This document shows, in pieces, positions 1,946 through 23,709 of a DNA stretch of 64,000 nt. This DNA comes from an uncultured Verrucomicrobiae bacterium (GTDB taxonomy: Bacteria; Verrucomicrobiota; Verrucomicrobiia; Limisphaerales; UBA11358). Every line of letters begins with the position of its first letter. Within the stretch, counting starts at the first letter, position 1. The stretch lies in the NCBI GenBank assembly GCA_963827815.1, contig CAWHCL010000003.1:20526-84525 (forward strand). The letters are read 5' to 3'. The position numbers were made by a program, and so were the translations under genes. Below the pieces are notes generated by a model, which was given only the letters and a program-made list of their open reading frames with translations, made no database searches and had not been told where the DNA came from.

Positions 1946-3253
1946 TCAGGCGGATTTATCTGATTTCTGCTGGACCGGTTCAAAATTCATTCGCCCGGCC
2001 ATTGCTTTGCGATGCTCGTTGGCCAGATGCCCATAAACCTTTCCAATCAGGACGCCGCCATCTTTGTGTCCCACCCAGGCAGCTATCGTCATAAAATCAA
2101 TGCCACTCATGACGCCCATTGAAATAAAATGATGCCGGCAATCGTGAAATCCAAAGCTCGGCAGTTTGGCGCGCTCGCGAACCAGTACCAACGATTCACG
2201 AAATGTCTTTGCCGGAATGTCCTTTTCGCCTCGCTGGGGTGAGGGGAAAAGCCATTGCGAGGCGTCGTGTGACCGTGCCTTCATATCGAGAAGGTGCGCC
2301 TTCAGCTTCGGATTGAAATCCACCACGCGCGCATCGCGGTTCTTGAGGTCTTCGATTCCGCGCTCGGTGATCTGTCGGCGGATGAAAAGTTGGTTGTTTC
2401 CGAAATCAACATCCTCCCAGCGTATGCCGAGGGCTTCGTTGCGGCGTGCGCCGCTATAGGCGAGCACCCTGATGTAATCCACAAATTCCTGCGCATTTTC
2501 AGTGACCGGAACATCGCCACCCTGTTTATTCTGCTTCGTTTCAAACGCAGCCTGGCAAAGTTTGTCCAGATCAGCCGCCGTGAACAATGAGCGTTTCTTG
2601 GTGCTGGTCTTGAGCGGTCGCAACCCTTCCATTGGCAACCGCTGGACCAGTCCATCGGACAGGGCGCGCTTGAAAACGACCCGCAGCACAATCACATCCA
2701 AGTTGATGGTTCGCGGTGACACGTTTTCCTTGAGGCGAGATTCAATAAACCGATTGACGTGAACCCGCTTGATCTGGTCGAGACGCAACCCGCCGATATA
2801 ATTATTCCAGCGTTTCAGGAGCGCTTTTTCTTTCGCCACCGTTCCCAGCTTTTTGGTTCCCTGACCACTGCCGATAAAATCCAGATAACGCGCCGAGTAT
2901 TCGTTAAACTTCGGCGTTCGTGCCAGCGTCGGCAGCGTGTTGTCTGACCGTTGCGTCTGCAACCGATTCAACTCGGCCACAGCCTGTGCCACGGTTTGCA
3001 CCGGTTTACCCTCCTTGGTGACCAAAGGCACGCGCTGGTTCTTTTTAATGCCGGTGAGGGGATTCTCAACATTCAGCCGGGCATAATAGCGCGTGCCACG
3101 AATCCACAGTCCGCGAATCGGTTGCTTGCGCCCATCCAATACTTTTGCGAAAGTAGCGCCATGAGCTTGGCGCTTTTCACAATTTTGGTCATTGCTAGTG
3201 GCATCACTTGCCTTCATGCCATAACAGTGGCACAAATAGTGGCACAACGTCAA
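1946..3253 (-). CDS. tyrosine recombinase / phage-type integrase (start possibly at 3217)
   Basis: C-terminal ARRNEALGIRWEDV ... HDCRHHFIS ... WVGHKDGGVLIGKVYGHL matches the R..HxxR..Y catalytic pattern. It lies adjacent to a tRNA. Confidence 0.9.
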   Translation of the reverse strand: MTLCHYLCHCYGMKASDATSNDQNCEKRQAHGATFAKVLDGRKQPIRGLWIRGTRYYARLNVENPLTGIKKNQRVPLVTKEGKPVQTVAQAVAELNRLQTQRSDNTLPTLARTPKFNEYSARYLDFIGSGQGTKKLGTVAKEKALLKRWNNYIGGLRLDQIKRVHVNRFIESRLKENVSPRTINLDVIVLRVVFKRALSDGLVQRLPMEGLRPLKTSTKKRSLFTAADLDKLCQAAFETKQNKQGGDVPVTENAQEFVDYIRVLAYSGARRNEALGIRWEDVDFGNNQLFIRRQITERGIEDLKNRDARVVDFNPKLKAHLLDMKARSHDASQWLFPSPQRGEKDIPAKTFRESLVLVRERAKLPSFGFHDCRHHFISMGVMSGIDFMTIAAWVGHKDGGVLIGKVYGHLANEHRKAMAGRMNFEPVQQKSDKSA

Positions 3254-3297: not shown

Positions 3298-3385
3298 GCC
3301 GGTGTGGCGAAATGGCAGACGCACAGGACTTAAAATCCTGGGACCGTAAAAAGTCGTGTGGGTTCGAGTCCCACCACCGGCACCA
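3298..3385 (+). tRNA. tRNA-Leu, anticodon UAA, long variable arm, encoded CCA
   Basis: Acceptor GCCGGTG/CACCGGC. Anticodon arm CAGGA-CTTAAAA-TCCTG. T arm GTGGGTTCGAGTCCCAC. Discriminator A followed by CCA. Confidence 0.9.
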
Positions 3386-8617: not shown

Positions 8618-8722
8618 AAAACAGTTGAACCATGATGGCATCGAGCCAGCCGAAGCACCAACGGAATTGTGTCAACGCCGCTTGCGACCGAGAAACCAAG
8701 CGGCGGAAAGGCAACATCCGAC

Positions 8723-8751
8723 TTGACATTGTTTACGTTGTAAACGATACT
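8723..8751 (+). promoter_or_regulatory. candidate promoter TTGACA-17 nt-GATACT with GTTTAC/GTAAAC operator palindrome, implying a leaderless TA mRNA
   Basis: The -10 element ends 6 nt before the ATG at 8758. The inverted repeat 8731-8736 / 8740-8745 sits in the spacer. Confidence 0.5.
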
Positions 8752-8757
8752 CTGGTC

Positions 8758-9120
8758 ATGCCAACAATTGTGCAATCGTGTCGGATCGAAGAAGGTCATG
8801 CGGCGTTGCTTTCGCGGCAGGCGAAGCGGCGTCATCTAGAAGTGTCCACATTGAGCAGCCTTTATCTGAAGGAAAAAGCGCTGGAGGAAGAATATCCGGG
8901 AATCGGCTTTCGCGACTCGGTGGGTGGCCGTGAAGCGTATGTTCAGGGCCATCGTGTCGCCGTGTGGGAAGTGGTGGACGTGTATCGCGAAGCCAAAACC
9001 ATCAGCAGGACGGCGGATCACTTTCGATGGACCCCGGCGCTGGTGCGGTGTGCGCTGGCGTATGCGAAAGATTTTGCGAAGGAGATATTGCAACAGCGCC
9101 AGGCCGAGGTTCCCGCGTGA
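8758..9120 (+). CDS. DUF433-like antitoxin-type protein
   Basis: C-terminal YPGIGFRDSVGGREAYVQGHRVAVWEVVDVYREAKTISRTADHFRWTPALVRCALAYA matches the DUF433 pattern as I recall it. It has a GTGA overlap with the next gene. Confidence 0.7.
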   Translation: MPTIVQSCRIEEGHAALLSRQAKRRHLEVSTLSSLYLKEKALEEEYPGIGFRDSVGGREAYVQGHRVAVWEVVDVYREAKTISRTADHFRWTPALVRCALAYAKDFAKEILQQRQAEVPA

Positions 9121-9491
9121 AGCCGCGACTGCTGGGGGATGAAAACACGTCGCACCGGCTGGTGGCGGCGTGCCGGCAAATTGATGCGGACTTTCCCCTC
9201 GTTCACATTTCGGACTGGAAGGAAGGCGCTTATCTGTCGGTGAAAGACCCAGCATTGCTGATGACGCTGCGGGAATTGGAGATCATTCTCGTGGGCTTTG
9301 ATCGGGCGAGCATCCCGATGCACGCGGGTGAACTGACGCGCGAGGGTTTGGGACACGCGGGCGTGATCCTCTTCCGCCGTTCGGTGCCGGCGGTGGCGTA
9401 TGGCAAGCAAGCCCGCCTGTTGGTGGATCTGTGGCGTGAGGCCGAGGATTGGGATTGGGCGGATCGTATCGAATATCTGCCACGACCATAA
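9117..9491 (+). CDS. DUF5615-like (PIN/Mut7-C-like) toxin-type protein
   Basis: GTG start overlaps the upstream stop. VKPRLLGDENTSHRLV..., about 125 aa, in the typical position downstream of DUF433. Confidence 0.65.
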   Translation: MKPRLLGDENTSHRLVAACRQIDADFPLVHISDWKEGAYLSVKDPALLMTLRELEIILVGFDRASIPMHAGELTREGLGHAGVILFRRSVPAVAYGKQARLLVDLWREAEDWDWADRIEYLPRP

Positions 9492-10888: not shown

Positions 10889-12148
10889 TCAGGCCAGAAT
10901 GTATTGTCCGGTCTTCCTGGTGCCGACGCGCTTCACCAGTCCGGCCTTGATCAGAGGACGTAACAAATCCAGCGAACCTTGTTTGGAGACACCGAGCGCG
11001 TCCCACAGTTCACGCGGGGTCATGCCCCGATTGTCGCGCAATAAATCCAGCAACTGTTCCTGCTTTGGGCGTAAGACCAGTTTCTCCTGTCCCGGTTGGG
11101 CGGAAAGTTTCTGCACACGTATCCACACGCGCTCCAGTATCAGCAATAAACCTTCGGCACAGTATGCCAGCCATTGTGTTAAATCTTCGCCTTCACGGCG
11201 CACGCCGTCCAGTGCCTTGTAGTAGCGCGGGCGATTCTCCCAATAATATTCGTCCACGGAAAAAATGTGATGGGTGTCGAAGCCGCGCCGGTAAAGTTCC
11301 CACACCCGATTGATGAGAATGTCGCCATCGGCCAACGCGAACTGCTCCCGCTCTTTCTTACTTATCTGAAGGCGCTTTAGCTCTGACCAATTGGTGATTT
11401 TACCATCGTAGAAAGCGTCAATGCGGACGATTGGCGTTCCACTGCCATAACACGATTGGGGTTTGTAGAGTCCGTTATTTGGACCTTTGGAAATCAAACT
11501 TCCAAACTCAACCAACTCCCAACTGCGCGGCAAATCGTCTGGGCCATCATCGCCTTCCCGCCAATCGGCGGTGAGGCGGCCGGAGCAGGCGGCGGCAAGG
11601 ACGGATTGGCGAAAGCGTTTGAGCAGCGTCGGCAGTTTTTGCAGCCGCTGCTGGCAGGCGTCAACTTGGCTCAACAGCGTCTCCAGCTTCGCCACAATCT
11701 GCCGCTGTTCGGCCAACGGAGCGAGCGGCATTTCAAAATCTGTGATGACTTCATCCGATGTAGTCGGATACATCGTGCCCGTGCAGTTTTCGCCGAGGTA
11801 ATTGAGATAAGCACGATTCCAAGCCAAGAATTGCCACAAGCATTTTTCAGCAAGTGCGCCTTTGTTTCGCAGCACCGTGAATGCCGAAGAGACTTCAAGT
11901 TTATCTTCACGAATCTGGATTATTGCACCACGCGTTGGCCTGACTTTCGATACGAGCACATCATTCTTCTTCGCGACTCGGCATCCTTTGACGGAAGGTT
12001 TGTCCGTGAGCGTGTAATTTTTTGAGCCGATGTCTACGTTGCCGATTTCCAAATACGGAACAACACCTTCACGACCTTTTTCTTTGGGAACATCACATAA
12101 TTCGCTGATGCGAGCTGTTGCCCATCCTTGTGGCAGTTCGTCACTCAT
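10889..12148 (-). CDS. hsdS: type I R-M specificity subunit truncated in TRD2 and fused to the C-terminal part of a Fic-family protein, including its wHTH tail
   Basis: TRD1, then the central helix LAPLAEQRQIVAKLETLLSQVDACQQRLQ, then the start of TRD2 up to GDILINRV (junction near 11300). After that come WELYRRGFDTHHIFSVDEYYWENRPRYYKAL...GEDLTQWLAYCAEGL and LRPKQEQLLDLL...MTPRELWDALGVSKQGSLDLLRPLIKAGLVKRVG. No HPFxxGNGR motif is present. Confidence 0.8.
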   Translation of the reverse strand: MSDELPQGWATARISELCDVPKEKGREGVVPYLEIGNVDIGSKNYTLTDKPSVKGCRVAKKNDVLVSKVRPTRGAIIQIREDKLEVSSAFTVLRNKGALAEKCLWQFLAWNRAYLNYLGENCTGTMYPTTSDEVITDFEMPLAPLAEQRQIVAKLETLLSQVDACQQRLQKLPTLLKRFRQSVLAAACSGRLTADWREGDDGPDDLPRSWELVEFGSLISKGPNNGLYKPQSCYGSGTPIVRIDAFYDGKITNWSELKRLQISKKEREQFALADGDILINRVWELYRRGFDTHHIFSVDEYYWENRPRYYKALDGVRREGEDLTQWLAYCAEGLLLILERVWIRVQKLSAQPGQEKLVLRPKQEQLLDLLRDNRGMTPRELWDALGVSKQGSLDLLRPLIKAGLVKRVGTRKTGQYILA

Positions 12149-12531
12149 TCCGAAATTTCCTGAAGGAATAAGATTTTATAGACGTTGGTTCGATTTGCCT
12201 GCTGCTCACGAAAACGAATTTCATTCGCGTCTGACGACTGGCCGATGACCTTGAACCGGCCACGGTAATACCATTTGCCATCCAACTCTTGAACGAACAC
12301 CGGAACAGGTTCGGCCTGCGCACAAAATGTATCGGCCCATGGAGCGATGAACTTTCCATTTTTTGGGATGATCTCGTATGGCGCGCGCGGATTCTTGTCG
12401 ATCCGAAGACAAGCGGCAGCAACTTTATCCGTGCCCTTGTAGTGAAGCACGTAAAAGACAGGTCCGGCCACCGCGTTCAATCCGGTTAGAATTTCGCTCC
12501 ACTCGTAGGTTTGATTTTTGATGAAGTCCAT
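12145..12531 (-). CDS. 128-aa hypothetical protein translationally coupled to hsdS; tentatively a PUA/SRA- or DUF3427-like beta-barrel
   Basis: ATGA overlap with the hsdS start. PVPVFVQELDGKWYYRGRFKV resembles the barrel-type motif of modified-DNA reader domains. This is a guess. Confidence 0.6.
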   Translation of the reverse strand: MDFIKNQTYEWSEILTGLNAVAGPVFYVLHYKGTDKVAAACLRIDKNPRAPYEIIPKNGKFIAPWADTFCAQAEPVPVFVQELDGKWYYRGRFKVIGQSSDANEIRFREQQANRTNVYKILFLQEISE

Positions 12532-12641: not shown

Positions 12642-12661
12642 GCGATTGTATTGGCCGTCGC

Positions 12662-12760
12662 TCACTTTTCCACCCCTTCCTCTTTTTCCAGCAGCGTGAT
12701 GATTTCGCGCAAATCGTCCACGACGGATTCCAGTTCCGTGATGGCTTCCGCCTTCGCTGC
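12662..12760 (-). pseudogene. orphan duplicate of the hsdM 3' end, covering the last 30-35 codons plus the stop
   Basis: It encodes ...AEAITELESVVDDLREIITLLEKEEGVEK*, against the hsdM tail ...TEAVTELEAVVDDLREIIELLEKEEGVEK*. The first 26 nt, counted from the stop codon (plus-strand TCA at 12662-12664), are identical, and the copy is out of frame with hsdM. Confidence 0.7.
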
Positions 12761-12798
12761 GCTTCGGCGCGACAGGTCGCTTTGGCGTGGATTGGCGG

Positions 12799-14256
12799 TC
12801 ACTTTTCCACCCCTTCCTCTTTTTCGAGCAACTCGATTATTTCCCTAAGGTCATCCACCACCGCCTCAAGTTCTGTGACCGCTTCAGTTGCCAAGTCCTG
12901 CGGTTCGGGCAGTTCGTCGCTGTCTTCCAGCGAGTCGTCCTTGAGCCAGGTCACGTCCAATTTGAATTGGCGATTGCGGATTTCGGAATGCGGAAAACAA
13001 CGGAAGCGTCCGGTCTCGCCGCCATCGGTCCGTTTGCTCAAGCCGTTCGGGTCTTTGCCGTAGGCTTTTTCAAATTCTTCAAAGTGCGCCGACGTGAGCG
13101 GACGATCTTTCTTGGTGATGCCGGGCACGTTGGAGCGCGCGTCGAAAATCCAGACGTTTTCCGTGGGTTTGCCCTTTTGCAGGAAGATGACATTGGCTTT
13201 CACGCCCTGGCTGTATGGCGTGAACGTGCCGCGCGGCAGGCGCAGGACGGTGTGCAGGTTGCAGTCCTGCATGAGAATCTCGAAGACCTCGCCGGCCTTG
13301 CCCTCGAACAGGCAATTGTCCGGCAGCACAATGGCGGCGCGTCCGCCGGGTTTTAGGATGGTAAGGACGTGCTGGACGAAGTTGAGCTGCTTGTTGCTGG
13401 TCTCGATGGTGAAGTCGTCGCGGTCGGGCGCTTGGTTCGCGCCTTTCGTGCCGAAGGGCGGATTGGTAAGGACGCAATCGAAACGGTCGCCTCGATCCGG
13501 TTCGTAAATGGTGTCGCCCAGCGCGATATGCGGTTCGACGCCGTGCAGGAACAGGTTCATAAGCGCGAGCCGGCGCGGGCGCGGCACGAGGTCCTGACCG
13601 TGATACACTTTTTTGCGGATGAAATAATCGGCGCGGTCAAACACGCCGCCGGAGACGGGCTTGGAGATGAGCCATTCCCACGCGCAGACGAGAAAGCCGC
13701 CGGTGCCGCAGGCGGGATCGCAGAGGCGGAAGTCGGGATTGCCGCGCGGGTCGGGCTTCATGACGCGGCAGATGGTCTGGATGAGCGGGCGGGGCGTGAA
13801 GTATTGGCCTGCGCCTTTCTTGCCTTCGCTGGCGGCCTTTTCGAGCAGGCCCTCGAACGCCGCGCCTTTCACGTCCACATCCATGGCGGACCAGTCTTCC
13901 TCGTCAATCATGGCGATGACGCGCTTGAGGTTGACGGGATTGTTGAAGCGCGGCGTGGCCTGCGCAAAGATGTCGCCAAGGAGGCCGGCGGACTCGCGCA
14001 ATTTTCGAAGATTGTCAGCGTATTGATCGGTCAGGGCGGTGCCGGACTTTTCCTTGAGACAGGCCCAGGAACAATCCGAGGTTTCCCTTTGGCCTTTGGC
14101 ATTGGTGGATTGAACCTTGGTGAGGTCCACGCCGCGTTCCTCGGCCATTTTCAGGAACAGCAGGTAGGTGAGTTGCTCGATGTAGTCGCCGTAATCCACG
14201 CCGTCATGGCGCAGGGTGTGACAGAAGCCCCAGAGTTTTTGGACGATGTCGGACAT
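12799..14256 (-). CDS. hsdM: type I R-M N6-adenine DNA methyltransferase subunit
   Basis: N-terminal HsdM-type region, motif I DPACGTGGFL, motif IV TNPPFG. Confidence 0.95.
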   Translation of the reverse strand: MSDIVQKLWGFCHTLRHDGVDYGDYIEQLTYLLFLKMAEERGVDLTKVQSTNAKGQRETSDCSWACLKEKSGTALTDQYADNLRKLRESAGLLGDIFAQATPRFNNPVNLKRVIAMIDEEDWSAMDVDVKGAAFEGLLEKAASEGKKGAGQYFTPRPLIQTICRVMKPDPRGNPDFRLCDPACGTGGFLVCAWEWLISKPVSGGVFDRADYFIRKKVYHGQDLVPRPRRLALMNLFLHGVEPHIALGDTIYEPDRGDRFDCVLTNPPFGTKGANQAPDRDDFTIETSNKQLNFVQHVLTILKPGGRAAIVLPDNCLFEGKAGEVFEILMQDCNLHTVLRLPRGTFTPYSQGVKANVIFLQKGKPTENVWIFDARSNVPGITKKDRPLTSAHFEEFEKAYGKDPNGLSKRTDGGETGRFRCFPHSEIRNRQFKLDVTWLKDDSLEDSDELPEPQDLATEAVTELEAVVDDLREIIELLEKEEGVEK

Positions 14257-14258
14257 GA

Positions 14259-15545
14259 TTATTTATTTGGCTTTTCAGAATCCGTAGTCGGGGCCGGATT
14301 TACCGATGAAAAGAGTTTGCCAGCAATGGCTGGTCGGTAATTTGGGGGAGACTTCAAGTAGTTTAAATTAATTTTGGGCATTGAAGCCAATGCAGCCCCC
14401 AATGATTTCATAGCATTTTGCATTTCTGGGCTGTTAAAACCTGAAAGCGCCACTTTTGCCATCGGACTGATAAAAGTAAACTGACTGTCAATATAGCTAA
14501 TATTTTCCAAGGTGTAATTACTAAAAGCACCATCATCCGCTATGGTGCATTTCCATTCCACATCAAAGAACACTGTCAACGTTGATTCCCGAATGTATCC
14601 GGAAGAAGTATTTTTGTAATCGACCAAGTAATTGATCCTCGTTTTCCATCGATATGAGTTATCTCCTGTAACACTATTTAGACTTGTTTCTCCGACGACC
14701 AATCTCTTCGTTTCCGGCGAAGGCTCCCATCCGACCGCAAGGACCGTTTCATAAATATTTTTGGGTGTAGGCAGGGCTAAATGCTTTTGTTGTTCTGTTT
14801 CTATACGTTTCTGAAGATCAAATTCATAAAACAAACCAGACTCATCTGATTGATCATAAAACTGTTTGCCTGCATTGGTCAGCATTGTGTTTACGAATGC
14901 CTCTTCAAGTTGTTTGCTCATCAATTCGATTTTTGATCGAAATAACCCGAGAGATTTGTAAACGGTAAATCTGTCTGTTTGGCCAATCTTGGCGTTTGTT
15001 GCCTCCGTCAAAATTTGGTCCCCACAAATAAAAGCAATATGGTCAACGTGTTTTGTTTCATAAAGGTACGCAACGGTTTCCATGACCAGCCTGTCTCGGA
15101 AACCTTTTTCCTCGTCAGGGTTTTCAATAAAGGGTGGATTCCGCCAGATGGCATCCTCAATGACTAACTTCCAATCAATTTTTGTGTCAGGTGTCGGGAT
15201 TTCCACACCACCCACAGACTTCAGCCAGTCGGCAAAGCGCGTCATAAGTGCCTTTTTTAGGGTGGATAGGTCTGGCGCAGGCGGACTCTCGAGACCGGTG
15301 CAATCCTTAACCGTCGCCATATTCTTGCTCAGATTCTCAAGTGATTGTCTTACGGTTGAAAACTTCTGAAACAGAATTTCTCCAACCACAACAGCAGGAA
15401 CCTCAATACGACCTTTCCCAATTTTTCTACAATTATTCCATTCCGTCTCAAATCCGGGGGAGACAATTTGTTGCGGCTTGTTAGTAAACAGGCTGTTTGA
15501 ATCCGGAATTACCGAGTATGTTGTTGTTCTTTTCGGATGGGACAT
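14259..15545 (-). CDS. PIN-like nuclease-domain protein with an unknown C-terminal domain of about 230 aa, embedded in the hsd operon
   Basis: Intact 428-aa ORF, 21 nt after the hsdR stop and 2 nt before the hsdM start. AT-rich. Acidic residues sit in PIN-like contexts: IPDSN, VVVGEI, FRDRLVMET, FICGDQ. Confidence 0.7.
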   Translation of the reverse strand: MSHPKRTTTYSVIPDSNSLFTNKPQQIVSPGFETEWNNCRKIGKGRIEVPAVVVGEILFQKFSTVRQSLENLSKNMATVKDCTGLESPPAPDLSTLKKALMTRFADWLKSVGGVEIPTPDTKIDWKLVIEDAIWRNPPFIENPDEEKGFRDRLVMETVAYLYETKHVDHIAFICGDQILTEATNAKIGQTDRFTVYKSLGLFRSKIELMSKQLEEAFVNTMLTNAGKQFYDQSDESGLFYEFDLQKRIETEQQKHLALPTPKNIYETVLAVGWEPSPETKRLVVGETSLNSVTGDNSYRWKTRINYLVDYKNTSSGYIRESTLTVFFDVEWKCTIADDGAFSNYTLENISYIDSQFTFISPMAKVALSGFNSPEMQNAMKSLGAALASMPKINLNYLKSPPNYRPAIAGKLFSSVNPAPTTDSEKPNK

Positions 15546-15566
15546 TTTGATTCCTTTTTTCAGGGT

Positions 15567-18260
15567 TCAGGCGGCAATCGCTTCGTTCAGTTGGGCCACG
15601 AGCAAATTCAATTCGCCAAAAACTTGACGGGCGCGCGCCACGCCGCCGCGACCTTGCAGCAGTGGCGTGTTGTCAAAATCATCCTCGTCAATGGTGAGGT
15701 TCTTGATGAGTTGCTCGCGGACGAGCGAGAGCCATTGCATTTGCTCGGTGGTGAATTTGTGTTTTGCCGCCAGCGCGTCCATGGCGCGATTCACGCGTTC
15801 CTCGGCGGTGAGCAAGGGCGATTGCCCGGCGGCGGCGTGCTTGACGATGGAAATGACGTCAGCCAGGGCCTTGAAGCCACGGGCGCGGTGGGCGCGCTGT
15901 AGTTTTTCCGGGTCGAAGCCGTTTTGGTTGAATGCGCGCTTGAGGTCTTCCAGCACGCCGGGCCGCCAGTCTTTGGGATGCTGGAGCAGCACGCCCAGCG
16001 CGGCGACTTTGGCGGCGTTGGCCCGCACGAATTTCTCAAAGGCGTCGAGGTAGTCTTCGGCACTGTCGAACTGGCCATAGCGTTCGAGTTTCTCAGAGGT
16101 GACGACGTCTTTGTCCTCAATGGTGGAGGTGAAGATGCGCCGTGCGCGCGGGTATTCGAGCAGCAACTTTTGAAAATCCTTGTTTCGCAGCAGTTTCATG
16201 GTGCCGGCGAAATCGGATTTCAGCGCCGACGGCAGCTCCCTGGCGAACGCGGCCACGTCGCCACCGGCAATCCACGCTGCAAACTGCGTTCGGGCCTCGC
16301 CGCTCATGTCTTTGTCAATCCGCAGCAGGCGTTTGGCGAGAACTTTGACGTGGTAATCGCGATCCACGCTCTGCCAAATATTCTCGATGACTTCGATGAT
16401 GGTGAGCGGCGTTTTGCCCGGCGGCTGGAGGTCGAAGCTGGAGACGTTCTTGAAATACCGGATGAGCGTGCCGTCGAAGCAGTCAAAGATGACGAACTTG
16501 GTTTTGTTGATGTCGTTGCAACGGCGCGTGCCGCGCCCGAGCATCTGCTCCCACAGGATGCGGGACTTGACCGGACGCAGAAACACGATGAATTCCAGCG
16601 CAGGGATGTCAACGCCGGTGGAGAGCATGTCCACGGTGACGACGACCTTGGGATTGGGGCGGTTGCGGAACTCACGGATGCGCTGGAGCGGCCGGTCCAC
16701 GTTGGGGTTGCCGGTGATTTTTTTGACGAAGTCGTCGCCCTGCTTGAATTCGTCCCGGCAGATTTTCACCAACTGATCGGCGTGAGAGGTGTGCGGGATG
16801 TCGTTGACGGCGAAAATCAGGATTTTTGGAAAGCGGCCTGTGACAGCCTCGTGTTCGTAGGCGTATTTGGCGACTTCCTGGATGATCTTGCGATTGCTGT
16901 CGGGTGCGGTGATGGAGCGCTCGACATCGGCGGCATCGTAGGCGCGCTCGTCTTCCAACTGATCGAGCGCCAACTGGCCGGTGTCGGTGTCCACGCGCTC
17001 GACGGTCTCGCCTTCCTTAAGAAACACGCCTTTCATGCGGACATCGGATTTGATGGCGACGGGCTCGTAATCCACGAGGTAGCCATCGAGGATGGCCTGT
17101 TCGACAGTGTAACGGAAGACCGGCGGCCCGAAAACCGCCGTGGTGTGCGCCGCCGGCGTGGCGGTGAGGCCGACCTTGACGGCGTCGAAATGATTGATGG
17201 TCGCGCGCCAGATGCTCATCTCTTCCGCCGTGTAGCCGCGATGACATTCGTCGGCAATGATTAGATCAAAGGCGTGGATGGGGATGTCGAGCTTGTCCGC
17301 ATCCGCTTCAGCTTCGGTGTCGCCGCCGCCCTGGGCGAAGCAGCCTTCCGCGCCAAAGAGATTGCGCGCCATTCGCTGGATGGTGGAGACGTAAACAAAG
17401 GTGTGCGAGGCCTTTGGCGCGGTCAGGTATTCATTGGGCAGCACCTTGGGGTCGAATGGTTCGTCGTCACCGAAATCCTCTTTTTGGAATTTCTGGCTGT
17501 AGAGTTCGTATTCCTGGGTGAACTTCTGGCCCGAGGGCGTGCTGAAGGCGTTGAACTCGCGCACGGCCTGGGCGGCGAGAGCTTTGCGATCCACGAGGAA
17601 CAGGATGCGCTTGAACTGGCCACTCTTGAGCAGGCGATAGACTTGGGCCACGGTGAGAAACGTTTTGCCCGTGCCGGTGGCAAGGGCGAGAAGAAGTTCG
17701 CGCCGGCTGGAACGGATGGCGGCCTCGGTGGCCGTGATGGCGCCCACCTGATACGGACGCAACCGGACGATGTGTTCGGGCGGCGTATCGAGCAGCCAAT
17801 CGTGGGCGAGCTTGGAATTGAAGGCGAATTTTTCCGCCAGAGCCGGGGCGGTGTGGAAATCCGCGACGGGTCGGGAGGTCGGTTTATCCGACCGGACATC
17901 GAGGTGCCAGATGATCTCACCGTTGGTGGCGTAGAGGAATGGAACGTGGAAGCCATTCCAGTTGCCGGGACCATTCGTCGCCCCCTTGGCGTAGCGCTTG
18001 GCTTGTTCCAGGACGTTCTGGGGGTTCACGGTTACCTTTTTGGCCTCGATGATGCCGAGAAAAATGCCATCCACGAAGAGGGCGTAGTCGGCGGGGCCAT
18101 TCTCGGTAGGAAATTCGGTGACCGCGTGGCAGGTGAGCTTGGAGGTATCGATGCCGGCTTGCCAAGGGATGATTTGCCACGGCGGATTGAGCGCCCGCAG
18201 CCGGGTATCAATCCGATTTTTCCTAGTCAGCCATTCCGCCTCGTGCATAGGTAGTTGCAT
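15567..18260 (-). CDS. hsdR: type I restriction endonuclease R subunit
   Basis: N-terminal nuclease motif ADYALF...GIIEAKK, helicase motif I ATGTGKT, DEAD box IADECHRG, EcoEI-R-like C-terminal region. Confidence 0.95.
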   Translation of the reverse strand: MQLPMHEAEWLTRKNRIDTRLRALNPPWQIIPWQAGIDTSKLTCHAVTEFPTENGPADYALFVDGIFLGIIEAKKVTVNPQNVLEQAKRYAKGATNGPGNWNGFHVPFLYATNGEIIWHLDVRSDKPTSRPVADFHTAPALAEKFAFNSKLAHDWLLDTPPEHIVRLRPYQVGAITATEAAIRSSRRELLLALATGTGKTFLTVAQVYRLLKSGQFKRILFLVDRKALAAQAVREFNAFSTPSGQKFTQEYELYSQKFQKEDFGDDEPFDPKVLPNEYLTAPKASHTFVYVSTIQRMARNLFGAEGCFAQGGGDTEAEADADKLDIPIHAFDLIIADECHRGYTAEEMSIWRATINHFDAVKVGLTATPAAHTTAVFGPPVFRYTVEQAILDGYLVDYEPVAIKSDVRMKGVFLKEGETVERVDTDTGQLALDQLEDERAYDAADVERSITAPDSNRKIIQEVAKYAYEHEAVTGRFPKILIFAVNDIPHTSHADQLVKICRDEFKQGDDFVKKITGNPNVDRPLQRIREFRNRPNPKVVVTVDMLSTGVDIPALEFIVFLRPVKSRILWEQMLGRGTRRCNDINKTKFVIFDCFDGTLIRYFKNVSSFDLQPPGKTPLTIIEVIENIWQSVDRDYHVKVLAKRLLRIDKDMSGEARTQFAAWIAGGDVAAFARELPSALKSDFAGTMKLLRNKDFQKLLLEYPRARRIFTSTIEDKDVVTSEKLERYGQFDSAEDYLDAFEKFVRANAAKVAALGVLLQHPKDWRPGVLEDLKRAFNQNGFDPEKLQRAHRARGFKALADVISIVKHAAAGQSPLLTAEERVNRAMDALAAKHKFTTEQMQWLSLVREQLIKNLTIDEDDFDNTPLLQGRGGVARARQVFGELNLLVAQLNEAIAA

Positions 18261-18411: not shown

Positions 18412-18966
18412 TTAGGCCGGAAGATTTAATTTGAGGTCGGCGAGACATGATTCGATGCCTTCAAGGAGTTCCCAGACCTGGGCCTCTGTCCGATTCAATT
18501 GCCAGCAGGCGGCGTCCCGGGCGGCCGCGTAGTTCAACAGGGCGCTGTCCCAGTTCATGCCAATAGTTGCAAAATAATGCGCTTTGCGCTGAGTCAGCCA
18601 TTCGCGTAGTTGCCGGTCATCGCATTGGCGCGTCAGGTAGGCGATGACTAAATCGCGCCGGGCCGTGGTTGGTGGTCCTTGCGGACGGCCACCGTTAAAA
18701 CCTGAAAGCGGAAATTTGAAACCTGAAAGTCCTTCCGGAGGCGTCGTTCCGAACCGGCAGTCCTTACGTCCCGCTTTTTTCGGACTGGCACTTTTAACCG
18801 CTGTGGTTGTGAGCAGGACAAGGACCTCGGTTTTGTGGCGGCGGAGTTCGTCGGCCAGTTCGGACGGCAGTTTTGAGGCCGGGCGAACGGCCAGTCCGCC
18901 ACCAGCCCGGGGTTCGAGCTGGAGGCCGAGGCCGCGCGCCCGTTGCAGGAGGTCGGCGGCGGTCAT
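18412..18966 (-). CDS. hypothetical protein of the replication module
   Basis: ATGA overlap with the primase stop. The N-terminal LLQRARGLGLQLEPRAGGGLAVRP...ELRRHKTEVLVLL docking-type motif is common in mobile elements. Confidence 0.55.
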   Translation of the reverse strand: MTAADLLQRARGLGLQLEPRAGGGLAVRPASKLPSELADELRRHKTEVLVLLTTTAVKSASPKKAGRKDCRFGTTPPEGLSGFKFPLSGFNGGRPQGPPTTARRDLVIAYLTRQCDDRQLREWLTQRKAHYFATIGMNWDSALLNYAAARDAACWQLNRTEAQVWELLEGIESCLADLKLNLPA

Positions 18967-21338
18967 AGGACGATTTCATCCGGCTGGGGCTGTTCCGAAC
19001 CGTCACACCGTAACAGTTCAATGTTTTCAAGTGTTTCATGCTGATTCTGAACCGTCACAGGCTCAACGGCTGTGACGGATTGAAACATTGAATTTTCGCC
19101 TGTGTTTACAGGTGTTGTGACGGTGTGACGGTTTGCAGGCGGGGTATCCGGCAGATAGCGCCCGAATGACTCGTCGAAGTCTTCGAGTTGGTAGCCTTTG
19201 GCTGTCTCATCCTGGCCGACTCCGGTGCGGATGGTTCGCGGCTGGATCGAAAATGGCCGGAGTTTGCGGGACAGCCAGTTGGCGTTCACGCCATGCCCCT
19301 TGCGCTCGTCGCACCAAGGCCGGTCTTCCATGTGGTTGAGGCACTCGACGATGGTGGCGGAGGTGAGCCGGTCCACGCCATCGGCGGTGAAGAGATCACG
19401 AATGTCGCGCAGGAGCATTACGCCGTGGCCCTGCACCTCGACATCATCATTGGCGGCAAGCAGCGTGAAGGCGGTTCGGGCGCGTGCCGGCCAGGGACCG
19501 CCGACGGCCTCGGCGATTGCCATGAGCGGACGCCAATTGTCGGCGAGCCGGTTGAAGCAGTCCGGCGGCATGACCGGGTCGCACGCTTCGAGCCGCTGGA
19601 TGTTGTCCCGTGCCCAGCGGGCGAGTTTGCGGCTTAATTCGCGTTCGCGGGCGATGCGGCGCGAGTCGAATCGGGCCGTGACTTCGCCGGGCCGGGCGCG
19701 CACGAGCCGGATTTGCACGGAGCGGTCGTGCAAGGTTCCTTGCAAATGACCGATACCGGCAAGAACGGCCGGGGCGTAGGCGTTGAAGGCGCGGACTTCG
19801 TTTTTATCGCCTTCACACCGGTAGGCCCGCGCGCCGCGCTTGTGGCCGGCGTTGAGCAGGCCGCGAAGTTCGTCGTTGTCGGCGAGGTAGGTGTCCACCT
19901 CGTCGAGTGCGAGGATGGGCTTGTGCAATTCAACCAGGCGGAACAGCACCGCCGGGGTGATACTTTCTGTCCGGAGCGCACGAGGCGTGAGGCTGCACAC
20001 CACGTCGAGCAGTGTGGTTTTGCCGCAGCCTTTTTCCGGCGAGAATAGATTCAGCCGGGGCGAATGTATGAACGCCTCGAAGCAGTGCGCGTGGGCGGTC
20101 CAGAGCGCGAGCGCATCCCCTGCCCCGGCTGGCAGCACAACGTAATTCGCAAACGTCGCGGCAACTGAGTCGAGAACTTCGGCACCATCCACCGGCTCGG
20201 TCCACGGTTCGGGGTCGTCGAATTCGACCGTGGAACCGCTGGCGCTGGCGTCGGAAGTTTCAGGCCGGCGTTGGGCGACCTCGGCGTCGAGCGTCGAGTT
20301 GCGGACACCGAGTTTTTTCGCCTCCTCATCGCGGACGCGGTCGTATTCCGCCAGCGAGAGTTTTGCGAGGGCCGTGAAGACGGCTTCGTCGGCTTCGTTG
20401 GAACGACGGAAGATGCCGGCGGCGGTCGCCGGCTGGTCACGCTCGTCGAGCTTCAACGTGGGCCAGATTTTTTCACATTCACCGGCGACAAACTTCGCGG
20501 ATTTCTTTGACCACTCAATCCACTGTGGCAGGCCGGCGTCACCCAGGGAGCGTTTCAGCGAGTAGCCGGTGGCGATCCAGACGCCGCGGTCGTCGCTTGG
20601 CACCGGCAACAGGTTGGCCTTGAGTTTCAGCTCGAGCGCGGCGGTTTCCTCCGGCGTGCGCTCCGCCGCGATGGTTGGCGACGAAATGCTGAGGTTCTCC
20701 TTTACCGGAGTTGGAACCTCAAAAATTGGAATTTCCGGCACGGGCAATTCCCCGGCGTTGGGATTGTAATATGCATCCGGGTCCCATGACGCGAAACAGA
20801 GGCGTTCCGGGTTCTTGCCGCTGGCGTCAATTCCAAGGCCGGTGGTCGCCTGGACGCGATCGCGCACGGCGGCGAAGTTGGCGGCGTGTGGCTGATCCGC
20901 CCGCGCGCGATAAACGGCCTTGATGCCAGAGGACGGCGAGGCATACACGAGGACGACATGCGGGTCCGCGACCAGTTTCGCGCGGAGCGCGGCTTGCGCG
21001 TCAGCGTCGAGGTTGTCGAGGTCCGTGACGACAAGGCCGGAGGATTGTGCAAGACCGGTATCGCCGCGACTATTGAACACGCCGGTGAACATGAATGCCG
21101 GCAGCGCGGCTTTCATGTCTTTGACGGCTTTTTTGGCGTCGGTCACGGAGCCGGTTGCCTGGAGGACCGAGTTGTAGGTGGCGCGAATGGCTTCGACCGC
21201 CGGGCGGAGCCGGTCGCCCCGAAGCAGGTCGAGAGCCTCGTCAAGCGTGCAGCGCTTGGGGCATTTATCGAGGACGTTGTCCACGCGCGAAAACAGAACG
21301 GCGGTCTTGCCGCCGGAATTTGAAAGGTTAGAATTCAT
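18963..21338 (-). CDS. primase-like / PriCT-like / DUF3631-type P-loop NTPase replication protein
   Basis: 791 aa. The N-terminal region resembles VirE/BT4734-type primases. Central GVWIATGYSLK...WIEWSKKS. Walker A SPEKGCGKTTLL, followed by LALDEVD. Confidence 0.75.
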   Translation of the reverse strand: MNSNLSNSGGKTAVLFSRVDNVLDKCPKRCTLDEALDLLRGDRLRPAVEAIRATYNSVLQATGSVTDAKKAVKDMKAALPAFMFTGVFNSRGDTGLAQSSGLVVTDLDNLDADAQAALRAKLVADPHVVLVYASPSSGIKAVYRARADQPHAANFAAVRDRVQATTGLGIDASGKNPERLCFASWDPDAYYNPNAGELPVPEIPIFEVPTPVKENLSISSPTIAAERTPEETAALELKLKANLLPVPSDDRGVWIATGYSLKRSLGDAGLPQWIEWSKKSAKFVAGECEKIWPTLKLDERDQPATAAGIFRRSNEADEAVFTALAKLSLAEYDRVRDEEAKKLGVRNSTLDAEVAQRRPETSDASASGSTVEFDDPEPWTEPVDGAEVLDSVAATFANYVVLPAGAGDALALWTAHAHCFEAFIHSPRLNLFSPEKGCGKTTLLDVVCSLTPRALRTESITPAVLFRLVELHKPILALDEVDTYLADNDELRGLLNAGHKRGARAYRCEGDKNEVRAFNAYAPAVLAGIGHLQGTLHDRSVQIRLVRARPGEVTARFDSRRIARERELSRKLARWARDNIQRLEACDPVMPPDCFNRLADNWRPLMAIAEAVGGPWPARARTAFTLLAANDDVEVQGHGVMLLRDIRDLFTADGVDRLTSATIVECLNHMEDRPWCDERKGHGVNANWLSRKLRPFSIQPRTIRTGVGQDETAKGYQLEDFDESFGRYLPDTPPANRHTVTTPVNTGENSMFQSVTAVEPVTVQNQHETLENIELLRCDGSEQPQPDEIVL

Positions 21339-21394
21339 GCAAGTTAGTCATATTGCCGCCGCTTCAGCCTGACCGTTGATCGACGGCAAATTTT

Positions 21395-21691
21395 TTAGTT
21401 CCGATTGCCTGCGGTTTCGGCGTTGGCAAAGATGTGCGCCTTCAAGCTGGCGTAATCCACCAGCCGGATGCCCGTCTTGGCGCCGCGTTTGCGGAGGCAA
21501 AACGAGCGCACTGGCGGGGTGAAACCGTTCAGCTCGGTCGGGAGTATTAATTCATTCAACGCGGACCGCGAGAGTCCGGTGAATGGACAACGCACTCCCG
21601 GCGGCGGGAGGCGAAGGAATTCAGGTTCAGCCGGCGTTTGAATGCGCGGCGATGTTTGAACGATCTCAGTGGTCATGTTCATGGCTGTCAT
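21395..21691 (-). CDS. small excisionase/AlpA-like DNA-binding protein
   Basis: FLRLPPPGVRCPFTGLSRSALNELI...GIRLVDYASLKAHI. It sits between the primase and the integrase. Confidence 0.5.
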   Translation of the reverse strand: MTAMNMTTEIVQTSPRIQTPAEPEFLRLPPPGVRCPFTGLSRSALNELILPTELNGFTPPVRSFCLRKRGAKTGIRLVDYASLKAHIFANAETAGNRN

Positions 21692-21780
21692 GCGACAACC
21701 ATGAACGATCCGTAAATCTAAAAAAGGGAACCGAAAAAAAAGAATTTTCCCTAATTACCACCAATTTTTCAGTCGTGGCG

Positions 21781-22368
21781 CTAACGGCGGGCGCGATGGA
21801 CGTGGTTTCGTTTTTGACCCTTGCGGAGTCCACGTTTATCGGGAGCCAATATCAGACCTAATTCCTTGGCGCGATTGCGGATGGTTTTGATATCGCAAGT
21901 AAAGCCTGGCGCCCTGAACTTGACGAGCGCGAGTATCTGTCTGGCGGTGCGATTAAGATGCTTCAACTTAACCCACTTAAAATCGAAAGGCTTATCGCTA
22001 AGGCGAATTAAATCTTTGGAACGTTCCAACAATGCCGAGCTCACCGGATCCACCGGGGAATACCTCCAATAGTCAAAGCCAGGTTGACCTTTGACATTTT
22101 CCACAGCCGCAATCGTCCAGTCCTCCAACAATTCGACAAACGCATGAACATCGGCGAATTGTTTTTTGTTGATGGCGTCAGCAAACAAGGCAAGCAGCTT
22201 GCGAGCAGGATCTTTCTTAGATTTGTTTTTAACATCATAGTGAATACCCCGTGCGAGCCAAAACATTGCCTGATTTTCCAATGCCCTGGCCCCGTATTGC
22301 GCGACGAAATCCTGATCTTCCCGAGACAGGGAAGACAGATAAAGTTCATACTTTCCTTTGTTTCTCAT
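21781..22368 (-). CDS. hypothetical protein
   Basis: ORF track. 4-nt overlap with the integrase stop. AT-richer than its surroundings. Confidence 0.55.
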   Translation of the reverse strand: MRNKGKYELYLSSLSREDQDFVAQYGARALENQAMFWLARGIHYDVKNKSKKDPARKLLALFADAINKKQFADVHAFVELLEDWTIAAVENVKGQPGFDYWRYSPVDPVSSALLERSKDLIRLSDKPFDFKWVKLKHLNRTARQILALVKFRAPGFTCDIKTIRNRAKELGLILAPDKRGLRKGQKRNHVHRARR

Positions 22369-23579
22369 AGCGTGATGTCGGGCAGTTTGTTGACGGCGGC
22401 GCGCTTGGCGGTGTCGTCAATTTTGGTGTAGTTGCGCGAGATGGAAGCGGTTTCATGGCCAACGATGTCCATGGCCACGGAGTCGGACACGCCGGACGAT
22501 TTCAAGGCGCTGGTGCAGTTGTAACGCAGGCAGTGAAAAGATATTTCATTCCGTTTGTGCTTGGAGTCGCGGCCTTTGCCGTTCTTGGTCTTCTCGTGTC
22601 CGCGTTTTTTGACAATGCCCGCCTTCACCATGACCTTGTAAAACTGCGCGGAGAGCCACGCAGCAGGCTTGCCATGCAGCTTCGGGCAAAGCGCGGCGCG
22701 GGGATCGTCGCCCGCAATAGTGGACAAGTGCCGTGCCAGCGGTTCAGCCAAAGGCAACACCTGGCGGCGTCCGGTCTTTTCCGTAAGGACATTGAGCGTG
22801 TCCGTGTGCAACTCGACATTGCGCCACGTCAGGTTTGCACAGTCGCGCAAGCGCAGGCCGGTGTAAAACGCCGTCAGAATCATTGTGCGCCACTCCGCGT
22901 CCGCGTGTGACAAAAGGTCGGTCAATTCCTTGCCAGTGAACGGGCGGCGGCTTTCCGGCTCGGTCTGGATGAACTCGACATGTTCGGCAGGGTTGAATTC
23001 CAACTGACGGCTTTTAACGGCGGCGTTGAAGGCAGCCTTCAATACCTTCACGCTTTTGTTTATGGTGGAGGGTGAGACGCGCTTGGCCAGATGTGTTTTG
23101 AAATCCTCGACTTGACGCGGCTGTAACGTCGACAGGGCGCGGTTGGAACGTGCACCCAAGAATGTGAGAAAAAGAACAATAATTCGACGGTAGGCGATCA
23201 CCGTCGCCTTACTCGCGTCCGTGCGCCCGGTAATCCATGAATCAAGCCAGCCGCGAACGGTATGGGACGTGAACTCGCCTCCAGCGATTCGGATGAACTC
23301 TTCGACAGCGAGGTTCAAGACAGCTTCAGCGCGGTCTGCCGCAAGTTTGCCATGAGTCTCGGCAATGGCCGCGCCTGCCTCGTGCACAAGTTTCATGCCT
23401 TTTTCATTGGAAAGCTTTCCGTTCCGCGTAAGGTCTGCAGCTTGTTCGAGATTGACACATATCGTGCGGGCGATTTTAGCGTTCTGCGTGCCGGTGCTGC
23501 GAAAGCGGCGGAAACCTTCAGGATCGTAAAAAGCGCAGAACCAGTTCGGCCTGCCCTTTTGCTTGTGGATGGATGCCAT
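22365..23579 (-). CDS. tyrosine integrase of the island (ORF track extends to 23672; the ATG at 23579 is preferred)
   Basis: MASIHKQKGRPNWF... SAM-like N-terminal domain, then LRLRDCANLTW...HCLRYNCTS...IVGHETASISRNY, matching the catalytic R-HxxR-Y pattern. Confidence 0.9.
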   Translation of the reverse strand: MASIHKQKGRPNWFCAFYDPEGFRRFRSTGTQNAKIARTICVNLEQAADLTRNGKLSNEKGMKLVHEAGAAIAETHGKLAADRAEAVLNLAVEEFIRIAGGEFTSHTVRGWLDSWITGRTDASKATVIAYRRIIVLFLTFLGARSNRALSTLQPRQVEDFKTHLAKRVSPSTINKSVKVLKAAFNAAVKSRQLEFNPAEHVEFIQTEPESRRPFTGKELTDLLSHADAEWRTMILTAFYTGLRLRDCANLTWRNVELHTDTLNVLTEKTGRRQVLPLAEPLARHLSTIAGDDPRAALCPKLHGKPAAWLSAQFYKVMVKAGIVKKRGHEKTKNGKGRDSKHKRNEISFHCLRYNCTSALKSSGVSDSVAMDIVGHETASISRNYTKIDDTAKRAAVNKLPDITL

Positions 23580-23584
23580 AAAAG

Positions 23585-23613
23585 CTGCATAACGGTAGCG
23601 CATAACGTGTGTG
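23585..23613 (+). promoter_or_regulatory. candidate integrase arm-type site (right arm): CTGCATAACGGTAGCGCATAACGTGTGTG
   Basis: Partner of 3446-3474. It lies between the integrase ATG and the att core. Confidence 0.45.
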
Positions 23614-23666
23614 GGTGTCAAGTGTATCATAAATGTTGTGATTTCGAGTGATTTTGACAGCGAGCA

Positions 23667-23709
23667 GGCCAAAAACGTCGTGTGGGTTCAAGTCCCGCCA
23701 CCGGCACCA
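23667..23709 (+). repeat. attR: 43-nt copy of the 3' end of tRNA-Leu (variable arm end, T arm, acceptor 3' strand, CCA)
   Basis: GGCCAAAAACGTCGTGTGGGTTCAAGTCCCGCCACCGGCACCA against tRNA 3343-3385. No 5' half of the tRNA lies upstream. Confidence 0.8.

Follow-up and report, generated by a model that had tools for sequence, protein, structure and literature searches.

In a stretch of 64,000 nucleotides (nt) from an uncultured Verrucomicrobiae bacterium (contig CAWHCL010000003.1, positions 20,526 to 84,525 of the forward strand; hereafter the window), an intact open reading frame (ORF) separates hsdR from hsdM in a type I restriction-modification (R-M) operon. On balance, we lean towards the explanation that this ORF encodes an independent defence-type nuclease of the PIN_12 family (PF16289, formerly DUF4935), which the hsd operon carries as cargo. 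It is a reasonable, if fairly ordinary, candidate for phage defence. Because unrelated genes occupy precisely this hsdR|hsdM position in sibling cassettes, we regard it as a variable cargo slot, and the PIN_12 gene as one interchangeable cargo among several rather than a dedicated partner of the R-M system. A preliminary description of the window, made from the sequence alone, had proposed a guard or abortive-infection module coupled to the R-M enzyme, and took the arrangement to be undescribed. As explained below, support for a new R-M-coupled guard is weak, and arrangements of this class have already been described.

The PIN_12 ORF (14259-15545, minus strand) has an ATG start and encodes 428 amino acids (aa). 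It is closely flanked by hsd genes on the same strand. The upstream gene, hsdR (15567..18260), encodes the type I restriction subunit of 897 aa, with HSDR_N, ResIII/DEAD helicase and EcoEI_R_C domains in Pfam and a REase_I match in PADLOC. Between the hsdR stop codon and the ORF is a spacer of 21 nt (15546..15566), which forms the left edge of cargo slot 1 and contains a Shine-Dalgarno-like AAGGA motif located 7 nt 5′ of the ATG of the ORF. The right edge is the start of hsdM (12799..14256, minus strand), only 2 nt beyond the ORF; it encodes the methyltransferase subunit of 485 aa (HsdM_N and N6_Mtase in Pfam, MTase_I in PADLOC). These positions agree with those in the preliminary description, as does the contrast in composition: the overall GC content and the GC content at third codon positions (GC3) are 0.425 and 0.422 in the ORF, versus 0.597 and 0.769 in hsdR and 0.594 and 0.765 in hsdM. 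Homology between cassettes also breaks at the edges of the slot, as expected of a foreign insert placed exactly between the two genes. A scan of the operon for terminator-like sites found none in either junction of the ORF, and the counts from promoter-like and terminator-like scans of the operon as a whole were at chance level, with both junctions empty. Given the tight gaps and the absence of terminator-like sites from the junctions, the natural inference is that the ORF is co-transcribed with hsdR and hsdM, which we consider almost certain, as the preliminary description had expected.

We assigned the protein to its family through Pfam, in which PIN_12 is the sole match (34.0 bits against a gathering threshold of 32, E = 4.7e-8); the alignment spans aa 43-176 of the ORF and positions 31-169 of the profile. 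Eight relatives of the ORF score higher on this profile, with 42-53 bits over positions 1-170, and the PF16289 assignment was precomputed for 15 of the 16 homologs that we obtained from a word-indexed search. That search yielded these 16 relatives only and under-sampled the family, as became clear from an exhaustive profile search, which returned 2790 representative clusters with E<=1e-3, of which 727 have E<=1e-30. Almost all members are about 390 aa long and align end to end. The family comprises hundreds of clusters at 50% identity, and is distributed over Verrucomicrobiota, Elusimicrobiota, Acidobacteriota, Planctomycetota, Pseudomonadota and phages. A DUF4935-type profile, which had been suggested as a check of the PIN-like N-terminus, is the very profile that the protein matches.

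The conservation pattern further agrees with a PIN-type active site. Four acidic residues singled out in the preliminary description correspond to D15, E56, D151 and D176, which are conserved in 99%, 99%, 100% and 99%, respectively, of 147 full-length representatives, and are invariant or nearly so across 15 homologs. They lie within a nuclease domain (aa 9-196; 14958..15521, minus strand) that we delimited by the PF16289 match, conservation and the structural model, and that includes the invariant EKGFRD motif (aa 146-151). Among the 147 representatives, EKGFRD and WRxPPF are likewise conserved, as are F229, W300 and W331 in the C-terminal half. The protein sequence has neither a Walker A motif ([AG]x4GK[ST]) nor a HEPN motif (Rx4-6H), in keeping with the earlier statements that it lacks a P-loop and is unrelated to PrrC. 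No model in PADLOC v2.0.0, NCBIfam or PHROGs matches the protein (with PADLOC, 0 families at E<=0.1). A tblastn search of plasmid and phage record collections with the ORF as query gave no match, and searches of PDB sequences with phmmer and with a hidden Markov model (HMM) of the family returned nothing usable.

In the AlphaFold models, the predicted local distance difference test score (pLDDT) is 77 over the full length and 91 for aa 1-200, with low confidence beyond about aa 373. The N-terminal domain is predicted to have the order b1-a-b2-a-b3-a-b4-a-b5 that is expected for a PIN domain, and the conserved acidic residues occupy corresponding sites: D15 just after b1, E56 early in the helix after b2, D151 at the start of the helix preceding b4, and D176 just after b4. 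Against predicted viral structures, the full-length model has one strong match, over its whole length, to a 366-aa Siphoviridae protein annotated as 'PIN like domain' (E = 1.7e-11, probability 1.0). The remainder of the protein body is a predicted alpha+beta domain (aa 197-372; 14430..14957, minus strand), delimited by the model and by conservation, in which a long helix (aa 199-229) is followed by four long antiparallel strands (aa 281-358). This putative sensor or regulatory domain probably serves to detect a trigger or to gate the active site. The earlier impression that the C-terminal half is beta-rich was thus correct as far as the model goes, and a Foldseek comparison of the full model with the PDB gave, for this domain, only weak TULIP-like and NTF2-like matches. 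We did not accept an assignment as a TULIP/BPI-like or NTF2-like fold, as these matches had template modelling (TM) scores of about 0.3 and root-mean-square deviations >10 Å.

To assess whether the ORF is a functional gene, we compared orthologs that occupy the same hsdR|hsdM slot in the window and in two further loci, L001 and L010. Among these three, the ratio of nonsynonymous to synonymous substitution rates (dN/dS) is 0.14-0.20, with dS of 0.4-0.75, and their GC3 is 0.40-0.42, versus 0.75-0.81 in the neighbouring hsd genes. Because of this low dN/dS and the thousands of homologs, we conclude that the PIN_12 ORF is a real gene under purifying selection. A fourth ortholog (P0004), whose protein is 72% identical, is located 5 nt upstream of an hsdM gene that is 91.5% identical. 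All embedded orthologs share a C-terminal tail (aa 373-428; 14262..14429, minus strand) that is confined to this clade; the rest of the family is without it. The tail is basic (isoelectric point, pI, of 9.8), whereas the protein body is acidic. Its aa 373-412 are 88-90% identical among the embedded orthologs (P0001-P0004), compared with 88-91% for the PIN core and 77-82% for the C-terminal domain.

Comparison with sibling cassettes shows how freely the content of the slot changes. The HsdM protein of the window has thousands of close homologs, annotated as Verrucomicrobia, and in the closest cassettes that we inspected (L126-L130; HsdM 88-94% identical) the hsdR|hsdM slot is occupied by unrelated genes. 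In L126 (4937-6682) and L128 (5819-7564), a 317-aa protein with a Collar domain (PF07484, phage-tail) is accompanied by a 263-aa ORF; L127 (4601-6771) has both of these and an extra 131-aa ORF. L129 (7005-8000) has a 331-aa Collar-domain protein, and L130 (5070-6140) an unrelated 356-aa ORF. The PIN_12 family HMM does not match any slot cargo in these five cassettes, and PADLOC found nothing convincing in it; these slot proteins are further guilt-by-embedding candidates. The flanks, by contrast with the cargo, are well preserved: hsdR 3′ ends are alike across cassettes, six of the seven cassettes compared share the same first 30 nt of hsdM, from which L129 differs by a single mismatch, and homology stops exactly at the hsdR stop codon and the hsdM ATG. 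In all compared cassettes, the cargo is AT-richer than the hsd genes.

A second slot, between hsdM and hsdS, is similarly variable. In the window it contains a 128-aa ORF (orf128; 12145..12531, minus strand), whose stop codon overlaps the hsdS start codon as ATGA, and which has a sub-threshold match to DUF6697 only, with no match in PADLOC, NCBIfam or PHROGs. In its place, L001 has DUF4145 and L010 the PADLOC candidate PDC-S02 (YhcG-like), and elsewhere the slot has other uncharacterised genes or is empty. Slot 2 of the window also holds a 90-nt relic of the hsdM 3′ end (12659..12748, minus strand), which is 78% identical to 12796-12885 and is a direct copy located 137 nt downstream of the genuine end. 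At the other end of hsdM, the 263-aa ORF in slot 1 of L126 opens with a copy of the HsdM N-terminus (MSDIVQKLWGFC). Both duplications have the appearance of scars that recombination at the ends of hsdM left behind as cassettes were exchanged.

Moreover, the genomic contexts of the family as a whole indicate that embedding is rare. Our census drew on reference genomes, IMG/VR and metagenomes and comprises 107 non-redundant loci, in which we detected type I genes by phmmer with two Hsd query sets together with the best 25 families of the Pfam and PADLOC neighbour tallies. Of the 75 loci in which the PIN_12 gene is flanked by a gene on either side, 55 show no tight same-strand neighbour, so that the PIN_12 gene is solo there, and an all-against-all BLAST of the census neighbours revealed no recurring family that could be a conserved partner. 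Type I R-M genes occur within 10 kb in only 4 of the 107 loci, representing three lineages (the window clade, L014 and L045), and the PIN_12 gene is embedded among them in two of these. Together with the unrelated cargo in sibling slots, these results do not favour the R-M-coupled guard of the preliminary description.

The second embedded case, L014 (5150-14971, in a metagenome-assembled genome of Elusimicrobiota), has the gene order hsdM-DUF3800-x-x-hsdS-PIN_12-hsdR-YgjP, with overlaps and gaps of -4 to +2 nt. Its type I family (T1RH-like_C) differs from that of the window, and its PIN_12 protein, of 397 aa and without the tail, is 26% identical to that of the window. Since the nearest non-embedded relatives of the window protein, which are phage-borne, are closer to it (31-33% identical), the embeddings in L014 and in the window clade are independent. 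The L014 operon is densely loaded, with four embedded genes (DUF3800, a 93-aa ORF, a 369-aa protein and PIN_12) and a YgjP-like metallopeptidase after it. In the viral contig L045, hsdRMS lies 3.8 kb downstream of the PIN_12 gene without embedding it.

Some other contexts are those of mobile DNA. Family members are found on IMG/VR contigs, and in L004 and L005 the PIN_12 gene is in a phage or prophage, beside a terminase gene on the opposite strand. Within two genes on either side, the families listed are a mixture, in which housekeeping genes occur next to defence or mobile-element families seen at a single locus each: HEPN_LA2681, NYN, MzaA, RT_UG29, a prokaryotic Argonaute (pAgo) with its partner, ThsB, AbiEii, PDC-S05, PDC-S15, PDC-S66, a DUF4411 three-component toxin-antitoxin (TA) system, and IS110 and IS66. 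In two loci, a different gene follows closely: a fusion of N6_N4_Mtase and Mrr_cat domains 8 nt after the PIN_12 gene in L030 (3202-5807), and a 443-aa PIN_4 protein 2 nt after it in L016 (9926-12522). These pairs may be lineage-specific two-gene arrangements. Finally, in 50 of 53 loci the PIN_12 gene has a lower GC content than its flanks (median difference -0.08, p = 5e-10). Because the trait extends to nearly all of these loci, AT-richness is a family-wide hallmark of horizontal mobility and is not specific to the hsd insertion.

The case for a role in defence draws on a characterised member of PIN_12. The integron cassette Cosus (Brc24) consists of a single gene, whose product has a PIN_12 domain and confers complete resistance to T7; each of the substitutions T12A, D14A and D96A causes a >10^5-fold loss of its protection (bioRxiv 10.1101/2024.07.02.601719). 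The primers listed there cover twelve Brc24 substitutions, including D47A, D153A and D177A at canonical PIN positions (bioRxiv 10.1101/2024.07.02.601719). The text names T12A, D14A and D96A as those that strongly reduce defence; a lack of such an effect for the other substitutions would be unusual for a canonical PIN active site. For comparison we used an approximate Cosus query of 383 aa, which we stitched together from the cassette in Table S3 (with indels) and the mutagenesis primers. This query scores 110 bits on PF16289 (aa 11-182), and the window protein and its eight relatives score 34-53 bits over the same profile span. The proteins are also alike in size (about 383 versus about 390-428 aa) and in layout, with an N-terminal PIN domain and a beta-rich C-terminal half, and their motifs can be paired: ITID14N of Cosus (D14) with D15 of the window protein, APF with PPF, EFPD153 (FPD153) with FRD151, and SQD177 with GD176. 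Both are single genes on mobile DNA. There are also several differences. Cosus belongs to the core of PIN_12 by its score, whereas the window protein, at 34 bits, is at its edge; Cosus is carried in an integron, with an attC site, and is not embedded in an R-M operon; the window clade has an extra conserved tail; and phage protection was shown for Brc24 only. The window family is thus a divergent PIN_12 subfamily that shares the layout of a validated defence protein. By analogy, we infer that the subfamily may have anti-phage activity, and the defence role considered plausible in the preliminary description gains from the validation of Cosus as a single-gene anti-phage system.

The protein also resembles what was previously described under the name DUF4935: proteins of about 350-380 aa with a VapC-group PIN-like N-terminal domain, conserved acidic residues and an alpha/beta C-terminal region without a known structural relative (PMC5499597). 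These have a long helical insert after strand 2 and two helices after strand 3, are usually monocistronic, and numbered 320 sequences in 2017 (PMC5499597). The window family fits this description closely, although the gene of the window is embedded in an hsd operon instead of being monocistronic, and the family is far larger and phylogenetically broader than the 2017 listing. Matelska et al. further noted PIN-like nucleases that are transcriptionally coupled to type I R-M subunits, sometimes without an antitoxin (PMC5499597). More generally, type I R-M, BREX and DISARM systems often hold embedded genes, several of which have been validated as defences, and this observation has been used as a heuristic to find new ones (bioRxiv 10.1101/2024.01.29.577857). 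The arrangement is therefore not new, contrary to the preliminary description. The embedded HEC and PDC candidates of Payne et al. follow the same logic, with an accessory nuclease gene inside a type I R-M operon, and the sibling cassette in L010 bears PDC-S02 in the slot next to its PIN_12 gene, whereas the window protein matches no PADLOC model. It differs from HEC-03, a PIN protein paired with an ABC ATPase, in having no partner.

We considered how such a nuclease might act. In the explanation that we favour, the ORF product would be a self-contained two-domain nuclease of the PIN_12 family. Its N-terminal domain would be a metal-dependent PIN domain of the VapC group, and most likely an endoribonuclease, with RNA as the presumed substrate; the family-specific C-terminal alpha+beta domain would sense a trigger or gate the active site. 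The gene would be a horizontally mobile, AT-rich accessory gene of phage-defence type, riding in the hypervariable hsdR|hsdM slot of an EcoEI-like type I operon on an integrative island. Transcribed with the hsd genes, the nuclease would add a second, independent layer of defence for which the R-M enzyme is not needed. PrrC is almost exclusively embedded, and Payne et al. argue that systems which act independently occur mostly elsewhere than in host loci (bioRxiv 10.1101/2024.01.29.577857). Because the members of the window family are likewise mostly outside such loci, we favour independent action.

Several points weigh against this explanation. Within the embedded clade, the tail is conserved and the hsd arrangement persists between proteins as little as 72% identical, which hints that the nuclease has become adapted to its hsd surroundings. 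In direct comparison, similarity to Cosus is marginal: the family HMM does not match the stitched query at default filters and gives 2.5 bits with --max, and hhalign of the family against it gives a probability of 11% over 128 columns, with equivalent motifs aligned. Functional transfer from Cosus therefore rests on the shared Pfam family and layout. Regarding the fold, a Foldseek search of the PDB with the N-terminal domain, despite its pLDDT of 91, gave no significant PIN match (best E 0.025); the top matches were generic Rossmann-like three-layer alpha/beta proteins, and Rrp44, which has a PIN domain, came only 19th and 43rd. The motif EKGFRDA[LI] was used to seed the census, and many of the contigs in it are short. 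In addition, housekeeping genes, for example those for elongation factor G (EF-G), RNase PH, a tRNA synthetase and ribonucleotide reductase (RNR), are numerous among the neighbours of the family.

A rival explanation is that the nuclease of the embedded clade is a guard like PrrC, held inactive on HsdM, HsdR or the M2S core through its conserved basic tail; phage anti-restriction proteins that disable the R-M enzyme would activate it, so that it cleaves RNA and aborts the infection. Like prrC and rloC, the gene is nested in an hsd operon, packed between hsdR and hsdM, and the arrangement is kept in at least four cassettes that have diverged to as little as 72% protein identity and dS of 0.4-0.75. 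Residues 373-412 of the tail match the PIN core in identity and exceed the C-terminal domain, they are present only in the embedded clade, and they carry a strongly basic charge on an acidic body. The L014 member, only distantly related, became embedded separately between hsdS and hsdR of another type I family, and the L030 member precedes a methyltransferase-Mrr fusion. In the EcoprrI locus, prrC is located between hsdS and hsdR, as in L014. Nonetheless, we consider such a guard unlikely. The family is overwhelmingly solo and rarely embedded, whereas PrrC is nearly always embedded; the same slot of sibling cassettes contains unrelated cargo, and a search of these alternative cargo proteins for the tail motif showed that they do not share it; and the embedded L014 member has no tail. 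The protein also has no ABC ATPase, P-loop or HEPN-type RNase motif, and its predicted fold is unrelated to those of PrrC and RloC. The hsdS gene looks truncated and chimeric while the nuclease gene is intact, which is a poor fit for a guard triggered by failure of the R-M enzyme, though half-HsdS proteins can function. A narrower version of this idea is that the hsd-embedded clade evolved from a free-standing defence gene and converged on PrrC-like logic with a different nuclease, with aa 373-412 of the tail docking on the R-M enzyme and the nuclease staying silent until an anti-restriction protein disables that enzyme; we judge this decidedly unlikely.

Two further roles would leave phages aside. 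VapC-group PIN domains are classic TA toxins, the window protein shares with VapC the four acidic metal-binding residues and, as predicted, this fold, type I R-M-coupled PIN-like nucleases that sometimes lack an antitoxin are precedented, as mentioned above, and the cassette belongs to an integrative island that also encodes an integrase and a primase. A toxin-like nuclease tied to the hsd operon or to the island could thus penalise loss of the cassette by post-segregational killing. Such an addiction or stabilisation function is, however, improbable: the 21-nt and 2-nt gaps leave no room for a VapB-like antitoxin gene, no small antitoxin-like gene is conserved up- or downstream across the family, the protein, with its large helical inserts and additional domain, is about three times as large as VapC, and most members are solo in chromosomal contexts. 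We assign a similarly low probability to an accessory role outside defence, such as RNA processing or turnover, or cleavage of hsd mRNA that tunes the balance of restriction to modification while the cassette becomes established in a new host. The many housekeeping neighbours and the lack of a match to any known defence model in PADLOC would agree with such a role, and a position between hsdR and hsdM could in principle alter their relative expression. Yet the distribution of the family is patchy, its genes are almost always AT-richer than their flanks, members occur in phages and mobile elements, the content of the slot is exchanged for unrelated genes, and one PIN_12 protein, Cosus, is a validated defence.

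If the gene does defend against phage, it would add to the known defences a large and phylogenetically widespread subfamily that current defence-finding tools miss, and would take PIN_12 defence, validated so far for Cosus alone, far outside integrons. In this locus, hsdM is cleanly flanked by two cargo slots with exact boundaries and recombination scars, a natural example that can help to show how R-M operons gather accessory defences. Embedded members with the tail and free-standing relatives without it offer a comparison by which to ask whether, and how, an independent effector gets wired to a host defence system.

Two further features of the operon concern hsdS and hsdR. The hsdS gene (10889..12148, minus strand) is apparently chimeric: HsdS-like sequence extends to about aa 221-285 and covers the first target recognition domain (TRD1), the central conserved region and some of TRD2, and in the last ~135 aa a winged-helix motif (HTH_24/MarR_2) takes the place of the end of TRD2 and the distal conserved region. 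The C-terminal part may be Fic-like; a phmmer search of the PDB with it found no match. Judging by its hsdS, the R-M system of the window may be inactive or of altered specificity. The C-terminal 490 aa of HsdR are 74% identical between the window and L001 or L010, and 95% identical between L001 and L010, whereas HsdM is 93-96% identical in all pairs of these three. We conclude from this discrepancy between the C-terminal half of HsdR and HsdM that the hsd operon is a mosaic, with recombination in or near hsdR.

The integrases, tRNA gene and primase around it indicate that the hsd cassette sits on an integrative island. A primase-like protein with BT4734-like_N, PriCT_2 and DUF3631 domains in Pfam (18963..21338, minus strand), a marker of the mobile island, is adjoined by the tyrosine integrase of the island (22365..23672, minus strand), both within the region 18412-23672. 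We searched for a repeat of at least 14 nt of the 3′ end of tRNA-Leu, which could define the ends of the island, and did not find one. This tRNA-Leu(taa) gene (3298-3385) is adjoined by a second tyrosine integrase gene (1946-3253). Also in the window, at 8632-9491 on the plus strand, a 162-aa ORF with a weak DUF433 match overlaps a 175-aa ORF (8964-9491). In L130, a pair of DUF433 and DUF5615 genes lies just upstream of hsdR, and a similar PIN-like TA pair may flank the cassette of the window.

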